A DNA stretch of 27,462 nucleotides from a virus. Shown piece by piece: positions 96 through 26,617 of this stretch. Location of the stretch: UHGV virus genome UHGV-1840938; one strand, written 5' to 3'. The number at the start of each line of letters is the position of its first letter. Position 1 is the first letter of the stretch. Under the pieces are notes generated by a model that saw nothing but the letters and a program-made list of their open reading frames with translations, was not told the origin of the DNA and did not search any database. The position numbers and the translations under genes are program-made.

Positions 96-170
96 TGGTG
101 TCCCCTGCAGGAATCGAACCTGCAATTAGCCCTTAGGAGGGGCTCGTTATATCCATTTAACTAAGAGGAC
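96..170 (-). tRNA. argW: tRNA-Arg (anticodon CCU), 75 nt, complete with CCA end
   Basis: Reverse complement folds as a cloverleaf: acceptor stem GTCCTCT/AGGGGAC, T-arm GCAGG-TTCGATT-CCTGC, anticodon stem AGCCC/GGGCT with loop CTCCTAA (anticodon CCT), 3' CCA. Matches E. coli argW as I recall it. Confidence 0.9.
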
Positions 171-290: not shown

Positions 291-1535
291 GTGTTTTGTT
301 CACTTGCTAATGCGTACATATTGAGTACAGAATACATTATAAACTTGTGTACAGGATATAAAGCATTGGCACTGAGCGACACCAAACTACGAGGCCTCTA
401 CGGAAAACCCTACTCTGGCCCTGCTGAAATCACCGATGGTGACGGGTTAAGTGTGCGGATTACTCCAGCAGGAACTATCACGTTTCAGTACCGTTATCGC
501 TGGAATGGTAAGCCAGTACGTCTTACTGTCGGGCGCTATCCGTCTACTTCACTGAAGGACGCGCGTGTTATCGTCGGTGAGATGCGCGCATTGTACATGA
601 AGGGAGTTAACCCTAAAAATTATTTTGCGCCCAGTGACGGCGAACTGACATTAAAAGAATGTCTGGATCAGTGGTGGGATAAGTATGTTACTGATCTGAA
701 ACCCAATACACAGACGCTTTACAGATCCGTCGTGTACAACACTATGTACACACAGTTTGAAGGCTCGCCAGTTGCCAGTATCCCAGTATCGGCATGGGCT
801 CGTTTCTTTGACAAACAAGAAAGCCTCAACAAGAAAAAGGCTCGTGTTTTGTTGTTACAACTGCGTTCAGTTATTAACTGGTGTATCAGCCGCCAGTTAA
901 TCCCATCATGCGAATTACTCAAGCTTAGTGTTAAGAATATTGGGAAAAAACCAGATGTAGGGAGTCGTGTACTTACCTATACGGAACTGGCAAAAATTTG
1001 GCTGGCGCTGGAGAACTCAAAAGTAGTTACTTCCAACAAGGTGTTACATCAATTGCTATTGCTATGGGGGGCCAGACTTTCTGAGCTACGTCTCGCGACA
1101 GCCAGTGAGTTCAACATGGAAGATCTGGTCTGGACAACCCCAAAAGAGCATTCAAAAATGGGGAATATTATCCGGCGTCCGGTATTCACTCAGGTTAAAC
1201 CTTATATCGAGAGATTGCTTAATGCGGGTTTTGATGTGCTATTCCCCGGGCAGGAAATAGATAAACCTATTGATCGTTCGTCGGCTAATTTGTACATGAA
1301 AAAGTTAAGGGAGAAAATTGATATTCCTGAATGGAGAACGCATGATTTTAGGCGTTCTCTGGTAACGAATTTATCTGGGGAAGGAATTATGCCCCACGTC
1401 ACTGAAAAAATGCTGGGGCATGAACTTGGGGGAGTTATGGCCGTGTATAATAAACACGACTGGTTGTCGGAACAGAAAGATGCGTATGAGTTGTATGCTG
1501 ATAAAATTTTCTGGCACGCTAAACAGCTCGGTTAA
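291..1535 (+). CDS. int: Tyrosine-type site-specific integrase (P4/CP4-57-like); likely true start is TTG at 366 (AGGA 9 nt upstream), giving about 389 aa
   Basis: N-terminal arm-binding-like region (ALSDTKLRGL...TFQYRYRWNGK), C-terminal catalytic HDFRRS (H-x-x-R) and tyrosine in VMAVYNKHDW; lies beside the tRNA. Confidence 0.9.
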   Translation: MFCSLANAYILSTEYIINLCTGYKALALSDTKLRGLYGKPYSGPAEITDGDGLSVRITPAGTITFQYRYRWNGKPVRLTVGRYPSTSLKDARVIVGEMRALYMKGVNPKNYFAPSDGELTLKECLDQWWDKYVTDLKPNTQTLYRSVVYNTMYTQFEGSPVASIPVSAWARFFDKQESLNKKKARVLLLQLRSVINWCISRQLIPSCELLKLSVKNIGKKPDVGSRVLTYTELAKIWLALENSKVVTSNKVLHQLLLLWGARLSELRLATASEFNMEDLVWTTPKEHSKMGNIIRRPVFTQVKPYIERLLNAGFDVLFPGQEIDKPIDRSSANLYMKKLREKIDIPEWRTHDFRRSLVTNLSGEGIMPHVTEKMLGHELGGVMAVYNKHDWLSEQKDAYELYADKIFWHAKQLG

Positions 1536-4173: not shown

Positions 4174-4445
4174 AGTCTTCTCCATATGTGTTTTAGTCTA
4201 CGCTCACCAGTTAGTAGCTGGTGATCGGGTGTCAACTAGAGCCACATATGAAGCTCCGGGCATATTCCCCTTGCGGGTGTTGTATTACGCCTCTCCACCC
4301 GACCTTTGTACGGATGTAACTATGCCAGATTGCAGGCATAAAAAAGCCGCAAGGCTATCGGGTGCGGTGACCGCATATGTGTTCTAGTGCGGTCAGTATG
4401 CGATAAGCGCTGCGGCATTGTCAAATCATGGGTATGAAAGATGGG

Positions 4446-22112: not shown

Positions 22113-22309
22113 CGTTCACCGTAAAAATCATTCCTGACATGCTTGTTGAGGCATATGGAAATCAGACCGAGGTGGCCCGAATACTGAACTGTAATCGTGC
22201 CACGGTCAGAAAATATATTGGCGATAAAGAAGGCAAACGGCACGCCGTCGTCAACGGTGTCCTTATGGTCCATCGTGGATGGGATAAGGGTAAAGACTCT
22301 GATGCGTGA
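22109..22309 (+). CDS. ninH: NinH-like protein
   Basis: [26 protein letters not shown]...VLMVHRGW closely resembles lambda NinH as recalled. Confidence 0.8.
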
Positions 22310-22727
22310 TATTCAGCAGGTGCTTGAACGCTGGGGCGCATGGGTGGCCAATAATCATGAGGATGTGAGCTGGTCGCCCATTGCCGCCGGATTTAAGGGG
22401 CTGATCCCGTCAAAGGTTAAATCACGGCCTCAGTGTACCGATGACGATGCGCTGATTATCAGCAATTGCATGGCGCAACTGAACGTCAACAACAGCGATT
22501 TGCATGATTTTCTGTATGATTATTATGTGTTCGGGATGACGCTTATGTCACTGGGCCGTAAGCATGGGCGCTCTGATTGCTGGGCCGGGCGGGTACTGCA
22601 AAAAGCAGAAGGTGTTATTGAGGGGATGTTGATCATGCAGGGAGTAAAGCTGGAAATGGACAGGTACGTTGAGCGTGAACCATCAGGATCACAGGCCAGT
22701 CAGTTTGCCGGACGTGCGGGAAATTGA
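22302..22727 (+). CDS. Q-family late antiterminator (QuuD-like); start at ATG 22302
   Basis: [45 protein letters not shown] closely resembles DLP12 QuuD-type Q proteins as recalled; overlaps ninH stop. Confidence 0.85.
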
Positions 22728-22751
22728 AAGCGCGAGTTTTTACTGTAGAAT
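22724..22751 (+). promoter_or_regulatory. Candidate late promoter (PR'-like) overlapping the Q stop
   Basis: TTGAAA at 22724..22729, 16-bp spacer, TAGAAT at 22746..22751. Confidence 0.4.
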
Positions 22752-22926
22752 AGCTGCGGGTGCTTGAGGCTGTCTGCCTCGGGCATGCAGCCGTAAGGCA
22801 GACAGAGAAAAGCCCCAGTTAACATTACGCGTCTTGCAGGACGCTTAACGTTAATCTGAGGCCAAATCTATGACTTACAAACTTAGGTTAGCCTCTTACG
22901 TGCCGAAAGGCAAGGAGAAGTAGGCT

Positions 22927-23082
22927 ATGAAGCAGCAAAAGGCGATGTTAATCGCCCTGATCGTCATCTGTATTACCGTCGTAGTGATAGCACTGGTAAC
23001 GAGGAAAGACTTCTGCGAGGTACGAATCCGAACCGGCCAGACGGAGGTCGCTGTCTTCGTAGACTACGAATCTGAGAAGTAA
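22927..23082 (+). CDS. Hok/Gef-family type I toxin (51 aa; absent from the ORF track)
   Basis: Translation MKQQKAMLIALIVICITVVVIALVTRKDFCEVRIRTGQTEVAVFVDYESEK has the transmembrane helix and the LTRK..CE.R...G..EVA.F..YES motif of Hok family; preceded by a 17-codon upstream ORF ending just before the ATG. Confidence 0.7.
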   Translation: MKQQKAMLIALIVICITVVVIALVTRKDFCEVRIRTGQTEVAVFVDYESEK

Positions 23083-23268
23083 GAGACCAGGCAGGGGAGT
23101 AATCTCCCGCCACCTCTGATGTGTCTGGCATCCTCAACGCACCCGTACTTTATTTGTCATATGCTCCGCAAAATGCAGGTTGTCGTTGCAACCAATGCGG
23201 TAATTTTTTGTGTGCGAGTGCTCAAAAAACGTTGATTTTCATAAAAGGATGATTTTATGCTGCCAGAC

Positions 23269-23317
23269 CAGCGACCAGCGACCAGCGACCAGCGACCAGC
23301 GACCAGCGACCAGCGAC
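23269..23317. repeat. Heptanucleotide tandem repeat (CAGCGAC)x7 between an ATG at 23257 and the large restriction-modification ORF
   Basis: Seven perfect copies counted directly; unit length 7 is not a multiple of 3. Confidence 0.95.
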
Positions 23318-23411
23318 CAGCAGTAAATCAAGAAAGTCTGTAAAATCTGTTGAGCCGGAAATTACCGAACTGGCGAACTCATGGCTTAAATCTTACAGGC
23401 TTGATTACAAG

Positions 23412-25373
23412 TTGCAGAATGCATCACTTAACGGAGAGATCGATAACGCACTGGACGCTTATTTTTCGAAAAATGGCGGCGCAGGCGGTAATCGTCCCGA
23501 CGTAAAACTCCTTGTTAAGGACAAATACGGCAAGCAGTATCCCGTTCTCATCGAGTATAAAGGCTACAAGGACAGGCTTATCAGACTTGGCAGCAACGGT
23601 ATTATTGAGAACAAAGATGCCAGAAAAGAATGGAATTTTAAAAATATTAATGGATACGCGGTGAATGGCGCAGTCCATTATGCCAACGCACTTCTTCAGT
23701 TCACCAATTACCCTGATATTATTGCTATTGGTATGACCGGCTGGCGCGATGATGGTACAGGCGAACTGCATCATGAAATCGGCGTGTGGTACGTATCAAA
23801 GAATAATTTAGGAGCCGGACAGAAGGTTGGTGAATTCACCGACTTATCGTTCCTTGCTGACAAAAATGTTGATGGATTTCTCAACAAGATAAAGCTGCTT
23901 AATCTTCCTCCCGAAGAACTGGAAAAAATCAAGGCCAGCAAAGAGGAAGAGATAGACACGCGACTTTCCCGTCTGAATAACGATATTTACCAGAATGAAA
24001 AGGGGCTTGGTGAAAGCGATCGTGTTTACCTTGTTGTGGCTACCGTTATTGCAACGTTGGGGATTCCGGGAAAGTTAGCACCGCTGGATAAAAAAGAACT
24101 GACCTCTTCAACGGAGGAGGACTTGCGTGATGGTGATATTATTTTCAGGAAAATAAGGAATTTTTTAAGGCTGAAAGCTGTTCCTGAAACAAAAAGAGAA
24201 ATGATTTTGCGCTCGTTGCAAAATACGCTGTGGACTGAAAACATTAACAAACCAGTCAACGGTGAAAGCCAGTTAAAGCGCGTGTTTGTTAAAGTTGTTG
24301 ATGATCTTGGGGAGTATTACAAAATTGGACTGACCACCGATTTTACGGGCAAACTGTTTAATGAGATGTATCGCTGGCTTGGATTTACGCAGGACAAGCT
24401 CAATGACGTCGTTCTGACACCACCTTATGTTGCCACATTGCTGGCACGACTCGCCAGAGTAAACAAAGATTCCTATGTGTGGGATTTTGCTACAGGTTCT
24501 GCGGGATTGCTTGTGGCTGCAATGAATGAAATGCTCATTGACGCCAGAGAAAATATTCACTCACCGAACGAACTACAACTTAAGGAAGCGCAAATCAAGG
24601 CTGAACAGCTTCTTGGCCTTGAGGTGTTATCCAGTATTTATATGCTGGCCATCCTGAATATGATTTTGATGGGGGATGGTAGCTCGAATATCCTCAATAA
24701 AGACTCGCTGGCCGATTTTGACGGCAAGTATGGATTTGGGAAAACAGGAGAAAAATTCCCTGCGGACGCATTTATTCTCAATCCTCCGTATTCAGCTAAA
24801 GGTAACGGCATGATTTTCGTGCAGAAGGCGCTGTCGATGATGGATAAAGGCTATGCTGCAGTGATTATCCAGAGTTCAGCTGGCACAGGAAAGGCTACGG
24901 AGTACAACAAAAAAATACTCAAGGAAAATACCTTGCTGGCAAGCATCAAAATGCCTGCGGATCTGTTTATTGGTAAATCAAGCGTTCAGACGTACATTTA
25001 CGTTTTTCAGGTAAAAATTCCGCATAACGCGAAACAGGCTGTTAAGTTTATCGACTTTTCCAATGACGGCTACGCTCGCTCTAATCGCAAAAAGGCAAGA
25101 AACAATCTTGTTGATGCCGATCGTGCAAAAGAGCGTTATCAGGAGGTTGTGGATCTGGTTCACTTCGGGAAAGGTTGCCTTAATATCTTTACGGAGGATG
25201 AATATTTTGAGGGAACAATCGATCCTGATAGTGGTGAGGACTGGAATCAGACCAGGCCAGTAGATGCTAGGCCAACGCTGGAGGATTTCAAAAAGACGGT
25301 AGGTGATTACCTTGCATGGGAGGTCTCGCAATTACTGAAAAAACAAGGTGAAAACAATTTTGCGGGAAAGTAA
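23412..25373 (+). CDS. Restriction-modification subunit: N-terminal PD-ExK-like region plus gamma-class N6-adenine methyltransferase (BcgI-A-like Type IIB/IIG candidate). The open frame extends upstream to 23253 through the repeat tract.
   Basis: Methyltransferase motif I VLTPPYVATLL...VWDFATGSAGLL and motif IV FILNPPYSAKG; N-terminal RPDVKLLVKDKYGKQYPVLIEYK fits a PD...ExK nuclease motif; the only start at the head of the ORF is a TTG with weak RBS, and the first in-frame ATG is far downstream. Confidence 0.85.
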   Translation: MQNASLNGEIDNALDAYFSKNGGAGGNRPDVKLLVKDKYGKQYPVLIEYKGYKDRLIRLGSNGIIENKDARKEWNFKNINGYAVNGAVHYANALLQFTNYPDIIAIGMTGWRDDGTGELHHEIGVWYVSKNNLGAGQKVGEFTDLSFLADKNVDGFLNKIKLLNLPPEELEKIKASKEEEIDTRLSRLNNDIYQNEKGLGESDRVYLVVATVIATLGIPGKLAPLDKKELTSSTEEDLRDGDIIFRKIRNFLRLKAVPETKREMILRSLQNTLWTENINKPVNGESQLKRVFVKVVDDLGEYYKIGLTTDFTGKLFNEMYRWLGFTQDKLNDVVLTPPYVATLLARLARVNKDSYVWDFATGSAGLLVAAMNEMLIDARENIHSPNELQLKEAQIKAEQLLGLEVLSSIYMLAILNMILMGDGSSNILNKDSLADFDGKYGFGKTGEKFPADAFILNPPYSAKGNGMIFVQKALSMMDKGYAAVIIQSSAGTGKATEYNKKILKENTLLASIKMPADLFIGKSSVQTYIYVFQVKIPHNAKQAVKFIDFSNDGYARSNRKKARNNLVDADRAKERYQEVVDLVHFGKGCLNIFTEDEYFEGTIDPDSGEDWNQTRPVDARPTLEDFKKTVGDYLAWEVSQLLKKQGENNFAGK

Positions 25374-25432
25374 ATTCCCCGCTCAGCGATAAATTAAGAA
25401 GCGTTGAGTGGGGAGAGTTCAGGATTGGCGAT

Positions 25433-26527
25433 TTGTTCTATGTGAGCACAGGCTCGCTTATCTCCTCAGGAAGATTAAAACCAGGCAAAATCAAACGTGT
25501 TTCAGCAAAGAGCGATCAAAACGGTATCATCGGAGAGTTTGATACCGAGTTTATGGATGATGCAAGACATTATGAAAATTTTATAAGCGTTAATTTTTTT
25601 GGAGATGCTTTTTATCATCCTTATTGTGCCAGCGTAGAAATGAAGGTGCATGTTCTTACATTAAAATCAAGTAAGTCCGACTTTAATGCAAAGCGCGGAC
25701 TGTATGTTGCCAGTATGATTAATAAAGCTTTAAAGGGGCGTTTTAATTATGGTCAACAGTTATCGAGTTCCAAACTCAGAGATGGAGAATATTTCATCTC
25801 ATTACCAGTGAAAAATAATGAAATTGACTGGTTTTTTATGGATAATTATATAGAAGAGCTGGAAGCGGCCCATATAGAAGAGCTGGAAGCATACCTGATA
25901 GCTGCTGGGCTGAGTGATTACCAACTAACGGAAAAAGATTATCTTATCCTGGAACATTTTAAAAATATTGAATTTTCAGGCTTTCCTGTTACTGAGTTAT
26001 TCTCAGTGTGCAATACAGGAAACATATTGTCTAGAGACATCATAGAAAATAGTGGGGATGTTCCTTATCTTTGTGCTAGCCGTGATAATAACTCTGTTAG
26101 TTCTTATATCGCCTATGATGACTCACTCTTGGAAAAAGGGAACTGTATTTTTATTGGTGGTAAGACATTCGTTGTAACTTATCAGGAGCGAGACTTTTTT
26201 TCAAACGACAGTCATAATTTGCGACTCTATGTTAACAATGAGGATGGAAGGACAAAGTTTGCTTATTTGGGCATTATTTCATGTATTTATAGGTCTATTT
26301 CACATAAATATTCATGGGGGGATAGTGTTAGTAATAGAAAAATTAAGAACGATGTTATTTGGTTGCCAGTGAAAAATAAGTCACCTGACTTTTGTTATAT
26401 AAATGACCTTATTTCAGTTGTTCATAAGCTTGTCATTAAAGATGTTGTCCAGTACGCAGAACGCAAAATGAACGCATACAGGCAAGCTATAACAAGTCGC
26501 GGTTATGATGATTCTGGTGTCAGTTAA
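25433..26527 (+). CDS. Specificity (S) subunit with two target-recognition domains (HsdS/BcgI-B-like)
   Basis: Two repeated TRD-leading motifs (RIGDLFYVSTGSLISSG... and PVTELFSVCNTGNILSR...), central IEELEA repeats; TTG start with AGGA RBS; very AT-rich. Confidence 0.8.
   Translation: MFYVSTGSLISSGRLKPGKIKRVSAKSDQNGIIGEFDTEFMDDARHYENFISVNFFGDAFYHPYCASVEMKVHVLTLKSSKSDFNAKRGLYVASMINKALKGRFNYGQQLSSSKLRDGEYFISLPVKNNEIDWFFMDNYIEELEAAHIEELEAYLIAAGLSDYQLTEKDYLILEHFKNIEFSGFPVTELFSVCNTGNILSRDIIENSGDVPYLCASRDNNSVSSYIAYDDSLLEKGNCIFIGGKTFVVTYQERDFFSNDSHNLRLYVNNEDGRTKFAYLGIISCIYRSISHKYSWGDSVSNRKIKNDVIWLPVKNKSPDFCYINDLISVVHKLVIKDVVQYAERKMNAYRQAITSRGYDDSGVS
25850..25897. repeat. 24-bp tandem duplication in the central spacer region of the S subunit (encodes IEELEAAH / IEELEAYL)
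   Basis: ATAGAAGAGCTGGAAGC appears twice at a 24-bp period (25850 and 25874). Confidence 0.9.
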
Positions 26528-26595
26528 AAAACATTTTACAATCGTAAAAATCCTCATATCATGATAAGAATGGTTACATTGCCACGCAGCCGAAT

Positions 26596-26617
26596 CCGCC
26601 GATGAGCGGGCTTTTTT
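26596..26617 (+). terminator. Candidate intrinsic terminator downstream of the S gene
   Basis: Stem CCGC/GCGG (loop CGATGA) followed by CTTTTTTG. Confidence 0.45.

Follow-up and report, generated by a model that had tools for sequence, protein, structure and literature searches.

We found that the 27,462-nucleotide stretch of DNA analyzed here (hereafter the window) very probably carries a complete and canonical hok/mok/sok type I cassette, which would be autonomous and represents an allele of the hokW-sokW/hokC group. The cassette is carried by an insertion of approximately 3.85 kb into an stx-negative, Stx-phage-like lambdoid prophage. Our confidence that the cassette is active at present is somewhat below our confidence in its identity and in the type of mechanism that it uses. 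Sequence and predicted folds established the family, the elements of the RNA and where the promoters lie; transcription, coupling, toxicity and physiological role were inferred from the published model of R1 hok/sok and from the experiments carried out with hokW-sokW (PMC8621323).

The hok toxin gene extends on the plus strand from the ATG at 22927 to the TAA ending at 23082; it comprises 51 codons, is preceded by a Shine–Dalgarno sequence (AAGGAG, 22912-22917), and its product is MKQQKAMLIALIVICITVVVIALVTRKDFCEVRIRTGQTEVAVFVDYESEK. The first-pass annotation had proposed that a 51-codon ORF in this region encodes a membrane peptide with the Hok/Gef signature, and the comparison with Pfam bore this out. 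The peptide aligned with the HOK_GEF profile (PF01848) over all of its positions (1-42 of 42) with a score of 77.2 bits against a cutoff of 22 (E = 7e-22), far beyond what is expected by chance. It shares 47 of 51 residues (92%) with HokW and is 82% identical to HokC/Gef of K-12, and in RefSeq relatives the identical peptide is labelled "Hok/Gef family protein". According to the Pfam match and the identity to HokW, the 51-residue product has the makeup of the toxins of this family, in which about 50 residues comprise a basic N-terminus, a single transmembrane helix and, towards the C-terminus, a conserved region that includes Cys. The conserved RKDLCE motif is altered in it by the change L29F. 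With the NCBIfam subfamily model NF007279 (Hok family toxin), the peptide scored 51.3 bits, under the curated cutoff of 73; this shortfall means that it is not filed under that subfamily model, and leaves its membership of the family at the Pfam level unaffected. PADLOC has no Hok model among its profiles.

A covariance search of the whole window gave a full-length match to the Rfam hok/sok model (RF01794) at 22758..22932 on the plus strand, scoring 119.3 bits (gathering score, 59). The same model reached only 16 bits on the reverse strand, which indicates that it matches the hok-sense strand and describes the leader of the hok mRNA, where the Sok target lies. Apart from this match, the search of positions 22600-23400 at a permissive threshold returned only chance-level matches to RNA families (ceN48 with 23 bits and the reverse-strand sok match with 16 bits). 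The predicted full-length hok mRNA spans 22758..23146 on the plus strand (approximately 389 nt), as suggested by the Rfam match and the fold. Its start was placed from the −10 sequence and from position 1 of the Rfam model, and its 3′ end from the fbi element and the end of the module homology (~23152). The scan for intrinsic terminators on the plus strand between 23083 and 23256 passed none, which is a weak negative.

The 389-nt RNA folded with a minimum free energy (MFE) of −155.8 kcal/mol (z = −6.7), and in both the MFE and the centroid structures its 5′ end (22758-22769) paired with positions 23132-23144, a complementarity that was also recovered as inverted repeat I4. These two segments correspond to tac (22758..22769, plus strand), which forms the 5′ end of the mRNA (GGGUGCUUGAGG), and to fbi (23132..23144, plus strand; CCUCAACGCACCC), which is complementary to it. 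In the predicted full-length fold, the ucb element (AGCCCCAG; AAGCCCC, 22810..22816, plus strand) pairs with CUGAGGC (22856-22863), a segment that includes dcb and the mok Shine–Dalgarno sequence. When the last 38 nt were taken off, the predicted MFE structure of the remaining 351-nt RNA (22758..23108) refolded tac onto ucb, GGG.GCUU pairing with AAGC.CCC. According to these models, the locus would reproduce the published hok switch, in which an end-paired full-length RNA refolds after 3′ trimming. Since tac and fbi are both invariant in all the aligned loci that carry fbi, covariation between them is uninformative.

A conserved 5′ hairpin occupies positions 22770..22805 of the hok mRNA (plus strand). 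Its perfect 10-bp stem is formed by CTGTCTGCCT (22770-22779) and AGGCAGACAG (22796-22805) and lies within a longer imperfect repeat (22759-22779 / 22796-22816). This hairpin is the 10-bp inverted repeat that had been noticed in the leader at about 22771..22806, so that element of the earlier description proved to be real. The hairpin has undergone a compensatory two-sided change, CTGTCTG/CAGACAG in the window versus CTATCTG/CAGATAG in 933W and in the related prophage locus L010, and compensatory changes between alleles were also found in the hairpin that follows the hok stop codon. The mok start (22869-22881) is also complementary over 13 nt, with a 77% match, to positions 23149-23161 (repeat I2); this is not conserved in 933W, and we took it as a chance occurrence. 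The mok reading frame itself (22870..22923, plus strand) begins with an ATG at 22870, is provided with a GAGG Shine–Dalgarno sequence, and consists of 17 codons and a TAG, in frame with hok.

A Sok-like antisense RNA had been expected at this locus, and we could place it on the minus strand from 22878 to approximately 22806 (about 70 nt). The annotated 5′ ends of sokW (933W) and sokC (K-12), transferred by alignment, both map to 22878, and the transferred annotations place the 3′ end at about 22802-22808. The predicted Sok promoter, read from the sequence, is TTGCCT-17-TAACCT (22913..22885, minus strand); its −10 ends 7 nt before 22878. It was below the threshold of the promoter scan, and its sequence is identical in 933W and in the related loci L006-L008 and L010. 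In the predicted fold of Sok (−30.9 kcal/mol, z = −6.3), about 15 nt at the 5′ end stay unpaired as a tail over the mok start; a long terminator hairpin comes next, and the RNA ends in CUUUUCU. With these predicted elements, the locus has what is found in the family, a cis-antisense Sok with its own promoter and terminator that covers the start of mok.

The Sok region also differs between alleles. The G at position 22850 is unique to the window, the others having an A, and it turns a G-U pair of the Sok stem into a G-C pair. With respect to 933W, 10 of the 27 nt in 22861-22887 (the Sok 5′ tail and the mok start, a region chosen post hoc) are different, as compared with 27 of 381 elsewhere. From this concentration of differences in the Sok 5′ tail and mok start, we consider that cross-neutralization between the two systems is unlikely; the clustering is consistent with a possible divergence of antisense specificity among co-resident copies.

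Taking these elements together, we propose that the hok mRNA would be transcribed constitutively from its own σ70 promoter (22724-22751), starting at about 22758. The full-length RNA would be locked, with tac paired to fbi (23132-23144) and ucb hiding the mok Shine–Dalgarno sequence. Slow trimming of the 3′ end would strip off fbi, and the 5′ end would then move onto ucb, leaving the mok initiation region free. Sok, a short-lived RNA made from its own promoter (minus strand, 22878 to ~22806), would pair with the freed region, turning off the translation of mok and the coupled translation of hok, and the duplex would be passed to RNase III. Once the supply of Sok ends, Hok would be made; the trigger could be the loss of the prophage, the shut-off of transcription by an infecting phage, or induction. 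Hok would then enter the inner membrane through its N-terminal helix, and the membrane potential would collapse.

The promoter assumed in this proposal had been read differently in the first-pass annotation, which placed hok downstream of the Q stop codon and of a PR′-like promoter, coupled to late transcription. The position relative to Q was confirmed. The antiterminator gene, of the Q933W type, spans 22302..22727 on the plus strand (Phage_antitermQ, PF06530, 162 bits; alignment with 933W; RefSeq relatives), its stop codon is the TGA at 22725-22727, and a σ70-like site, TTGAAA-16-TAGAAT (22724..22751, plus strand), is present there, its −35 overlapping the Q stop and its −10 lying inside the conserved hok module. 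This site matches the σ70 consensus at 10 of 12 positions, and by itself such a promoter-like site is not above chance (1 found versus 0.8 expected in shuffled sequences). The assignment to late transcription did not hold. The distance from the −10 to GGGTGCTTGAGG is identical in the window, in 933W hokW (TAGAAT), in K-12 hokC (TATAAT) and in the L010 prophage of strain E7-1N7 (TAAAAT), and the −35 varies with each genomic context. Given that hok loci of independent origin keep the −10 at a constant spacing from the start of the mRNA, 22724..22751 is the promoter of hok itself, whose −10 belongs to a module shared with hokW and hokC in unrelated contexts, and not a PR′-like late promoter.

The alternative in which hok is a late gene, transcribed from a PR′-like promoter after Q and switched on with the lysis genes by Q antitermination, is suggested by the location of hok right after the Q stop, by its orientation, which is that of Q, and by the good σ70 match. 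It would also agree with the increase of HokW in Sakai prophage 5 (Sp5) after mitomycin C, which aids phage release (PMC8621323). Nevertheless, both the −10 and the start of the transcript are parts of the hok module, which keeps them where there is no Q context, and the alignment of the 933W Q-PR′ region with the window ruled out a coupling of hok to the late promoter. The true late promoter PR′ (TTTACA-16-TATCAT, 26535-26562, plus strand; 933W annotation, alignment and scans) is followed by a qut-like motif (ACATTGCC, 26576-26583) and by tR′, which consists of a hairpin and a T run (26595-~26618), these last two located on the plus strand by homology to 933W. The whole region (26535..26618) is near-identical to the annotated 933W elements and occurs a single time (one 32-nt match, 0 expected), approximately 3.6 kb downstream of hok and 3.8 kb downstream of the promoter at 22724..22751; no second copy of the qut-like motif was found near hok, in 22724-22760. 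Since PR′ and qut lie downstream of hok, hok is uncoupled from Q-dependent late transcription, and it does not occupy the place of a lambdoid late gene, downstream of both sites. We therefore regard the late-gene alternative as extremely improbable.

The displacement of PR′ is explained by the insertion. According to the annotation of 933W, pR′, qut and the first terminator directly abut Q, and relative to 933W the window has about 3.85 kb (~22680..26530) between Q and PR′. Q is homologous to its 933W counterpart up to about 22679; its last 16 codons or so and its stop codon therefore come from the inserted DNA. The insertion contains this new 16-codon Q tail, hok/sok, a heptamer tract, a gene for a 653-residue nuclease-methyltransferase and a specificity-subunit gene. 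Two corrections follow for the annotation of this prophage: the promoter after Q is that of hok, and the late promoter has been moved 3.8 kb downstream by the insertion. Models of late-gene or toxin expression for this type of phage must begin at 26535 and not at 22724.

The activity of the preferred cassette could be affected by codon 18 of mok, which is TAG in the window (22921-22923) and CAG in hokW, hokC and all the other relatives compared. As a result, mok stops 3 nt before the hok ATG with no overlap, whereas in the relatives mok reads through into hok. This change could weaken or abolish the coupling to hok. A cassette that is silent or decaying, with the amber mok uncoupling hok and a transcript made without toxin, as at the inactivated chromosomal hok loci of K-12, would agree with the presence of TAG for CAG in this lineage only, with sister loci at the same position in which hok is dead, and with the loss of the 3′ end of K-12 hokC to IS186. 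The sister loci are L006 and L007 (4828..4984), with a +T frameshift after hok codon 9, and L015 of E. coli E110019 (2528..2683), where hok codon 4 is changed from CAA to TAA; all three have the Q-hok arrangement of the window and retain the neighboring restriction-modification gene despite the dead hok. Against this reading, the window has an intact hok ORF together with intact promoters for hok and Sok, tac, ucb, fbi and Sok hairpin, and the amber allele persists without change in some 16-18 genomes (an exact match to the 60-mer that contains it was found in approximately 18 of 20,395 E. coli records). Moreover, the TAG is positioned 3′ of the hok Shine–Dalgarno sequence, 3 nt from the ATG, so a ribosome translating mok would open the hok start and could reinitiate there; with the amber mok, the coupling to hok would occur by termination and reinitiation instead of overlap. 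We consider a silent cassette unlikely. This amber-truncated mok is a natural variant that could serve to test the dependence of hok translation on the mok overlap.

Two further proposals go beyond the autonomous cassette. In one of them, antiterminated delayed-early transcription from PR would cross hok on induction, raising hok-sense RNA and disturbing the convergent Sok promoter; Hok would be an early, Q-independent lysis helper or an abortive effector, and the role of the cassette in the lysogen would be to stabilize the adjacent restriction-modification island. The scan found no plus-strand terminator between Q and hok, and on induction of Sp5 the sokW RNA is lost and HokW appears in a RecA-dependent manner (PMC8621323). 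The joint travel of hok, its spacer, the repeat tract and the restriction-modification gene in a different prophage (L010, strain E7-1N7) also speaks for it; the L010 enzyme is 87% identical to that of the window, and the specificity subunits differ. However, this proposal draws on position alone, N-type antitermination in the window is putative, most copies of the hok module stand alone without restriction-modification genes, and hok is dead in some of the loci that keep these genes; we find it quite unlikely. In the other proposal, hok/sok would not stand alone but would head an island of three parts that move together, placed between Q and PR′; it would be followed by the hypervariable (GACCAGC)n switch and then by the BcgI-like restriction-modification pair. 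Hok would then be an addiction module as well as a Q-independent early lysis or abortive effector, and the amber mok would tune translation by termination and reinitiation, an extended scheme that we hold to be decidedly improbable. If this island existed as such, the restriction-modification gene might be fed in the lysogen by the constitutive hok promoter, as no separate promoter is recognizable for it (no σ70 promoter passed the scan from 23083 to 23256, a weak negative), and read-through from PR on induction might also cross the island. The autonomous cassette remains our preferred explanation.

The module that corresponds to 22745..23152 (about 408 bp) is widespread: of 5,426 complete genomes of E. 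coli, 4,691 contain it, the median being two copies and the maximum nine. The Q-hok arrangement of the window is rare, found in only 30 of these genomes and, among 50,697 phage records, in PhiR12_3 alone. Among 13 related loci, hok is inactivated in three, by two frameshifts and one stop at Q4, which suggests that selection on the cassette is not uniformly strong. L008 and ten other loci have an intact hok.

Downstream of hok, a BcgI-like/Type IIG nuclease-methyltransferase gene (23257..25373; PADLOC, 757 bits) is followed by a Type II specificity-subunit gene (25433..26527). Within the 5′ coding region of the former there is a (GACCAGC)n tract (23266..23321) with 8 perfect copies in the window and 23 to 99 in 13 related loci, examples being L002 (6567..7014) and L003 (6567..7147), as well as L006, L007, L011 and L013. 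Its length varies even among isolates of one study (about 93 copies in G1/2, 83 in G6/7 and 99 in G8). Several observations bear on the inclusion of the tract in the gene: the ATG at 23257 has a good Shine–Dalgarno sequence, the frame of the enzyme stays open upstream across the tract, amino-acid conservation is seen in the peptide that separates the tract from the annotated TTG start, and the PADLOC Type IIG profile begins 35 positions before the annotated start. The tract is in frame in 4 of 14 loci, where the ORFs encode 812-917 residues, and out of frame in the others, including the window. This gene looks like a candidate phase-variable BcgI-like restriction-modification system in E. coli prophages. 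In the literature searched, which was limited in scope, we found no description of a heptamer-repeat restriction-modification gene in E. coli prophages. This tract is a better lead than the hok/sok finding itself.

RefSeq labels the heptamer repeat as a spurious minus-strand 'YXWGXW repeat-containing protein'. The end of the window (27416..27462) is the Nextera transposase adapter (CTGTCTCTTATACACATCTCCGAGCCCACGAGAC), that is, adapter contamination at the end of the contig; this points to a short-read assembly, in which the 8-copy tract has probably been collapsed. In the middle of the specificity-subunit gene (25850..25901), a 24-nt unit of the IEELEA type is repeated 2.2 times and is shared by the relatives. 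In Type I specificity subunits, central repeats set the spacing of the half-sites, and the 24-nt repeat could be a second source of variation.

Other elements were observed elsewhere in the window. Approximately 100 nt downstream of tR′, an Rfam match to the STnc100 sRNA (26714..26930, plus strand, 149 bits) ends in a strong terminator (26899..26925), and a nanS-p-like esterase gene comes next, from 27139. Between PR′ and the esterase gene there are no tRNA genes and no stx genes, unlike in 933W. On the minus strand, adjoining Rfam matches to the C4 antisense RNA (79 bits) and isrK (65 bits) were found at 13529..13716; this pair is the P1/P7-type RNA module for antirepressor control that is seen in Stx-like and Gifsy-type prophages. 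The early-left region has a match to sRNA-Xcc1 (4215..4304, minus strand; 65 bits, the gathering score being 53). The left end of the window has a tRNA-Arg(CCT) gene (96..170, minus strand) next to an ORF for 414 residues (291..1535, plus strand); they probably represent a putative attachment site of the prophage and its integrase.

[quoted passage not shown] The kind of system, the family, the prophage setting and the peptide itself were already known and annotated; the only features that seem to be undescribed are the amber mok and the placement of hok between Q and PR′, and the literature searched, limited in scope, contained no description of either. The cryptic prophage Qin, which is lambdoid, likewise has a Hok-family gene, hokD (relF), close to a gene resembling Q. 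Over 60 nt surrounding the hok start, identity is 97-98% in many genomes; the match begins only at query position 21, from which we conclude that the upstream mok/sok elements are absent there. The K-12 hokD is found behind relBE and upstream of ydfT, which is the Q-like gene.

The R1 hok/sok (parB) locus has a stable end-paired mRNA, 3′ processing, coupling through mok, and an antisense RNA that is unstable and recognizes its target through a 5′ tail. The mok of R1 uses a different frame from the hok that it overlaps, and the locus stabilizes the plasmid. The mechanism and the set of elements of R1 are reproduced in the predicted folds of the window, and the identity between HokW and R1 Hok is about 44% at the protein level (PMC8621323). 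The K-12 hokC (gef)-mokC-sokC locus resembles the window in that mok is in frame with hok, the 5′ end of Sok is at the same position, and the −10 and the 5′ leader are conserved; it is different in being a chromosomal locus in which 18 nt of the Sok-target hairpin are missing and the 3′ end, with fbi, was lost to IS186.

The hokW-mokW-sokW locus of 933W and Sakai prophage 5 shows 91% DNA identity to the window over 22745..23152 (megablast; also VT2-Sakai), and it shares with the window the Sok promoter, the Sok 5′ end, tac, ucb, fbi and the setting in a lambdoid prophage. HokW is a toxic inner-membrane protein that is neutralized by sokW, expressed from its own promoter, and the locus approximately doubles phage release after mitomycin C (PMC8621323, Takada et al. 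2021). In contrast with the window copy, which lies between Q and PR′, hokW is at the far end of the genome, beyond the tail-fiber gene and in the opposite orientation; its −35 region differs from that of the window, and mokW continues into hokW (CAG) whereas the mok of the window stops (TAG). The cassette is one further allele of a well-studied toxin-antitoxin family, with this degree of identity to a locus for which experiments have been published, and little changes with it.
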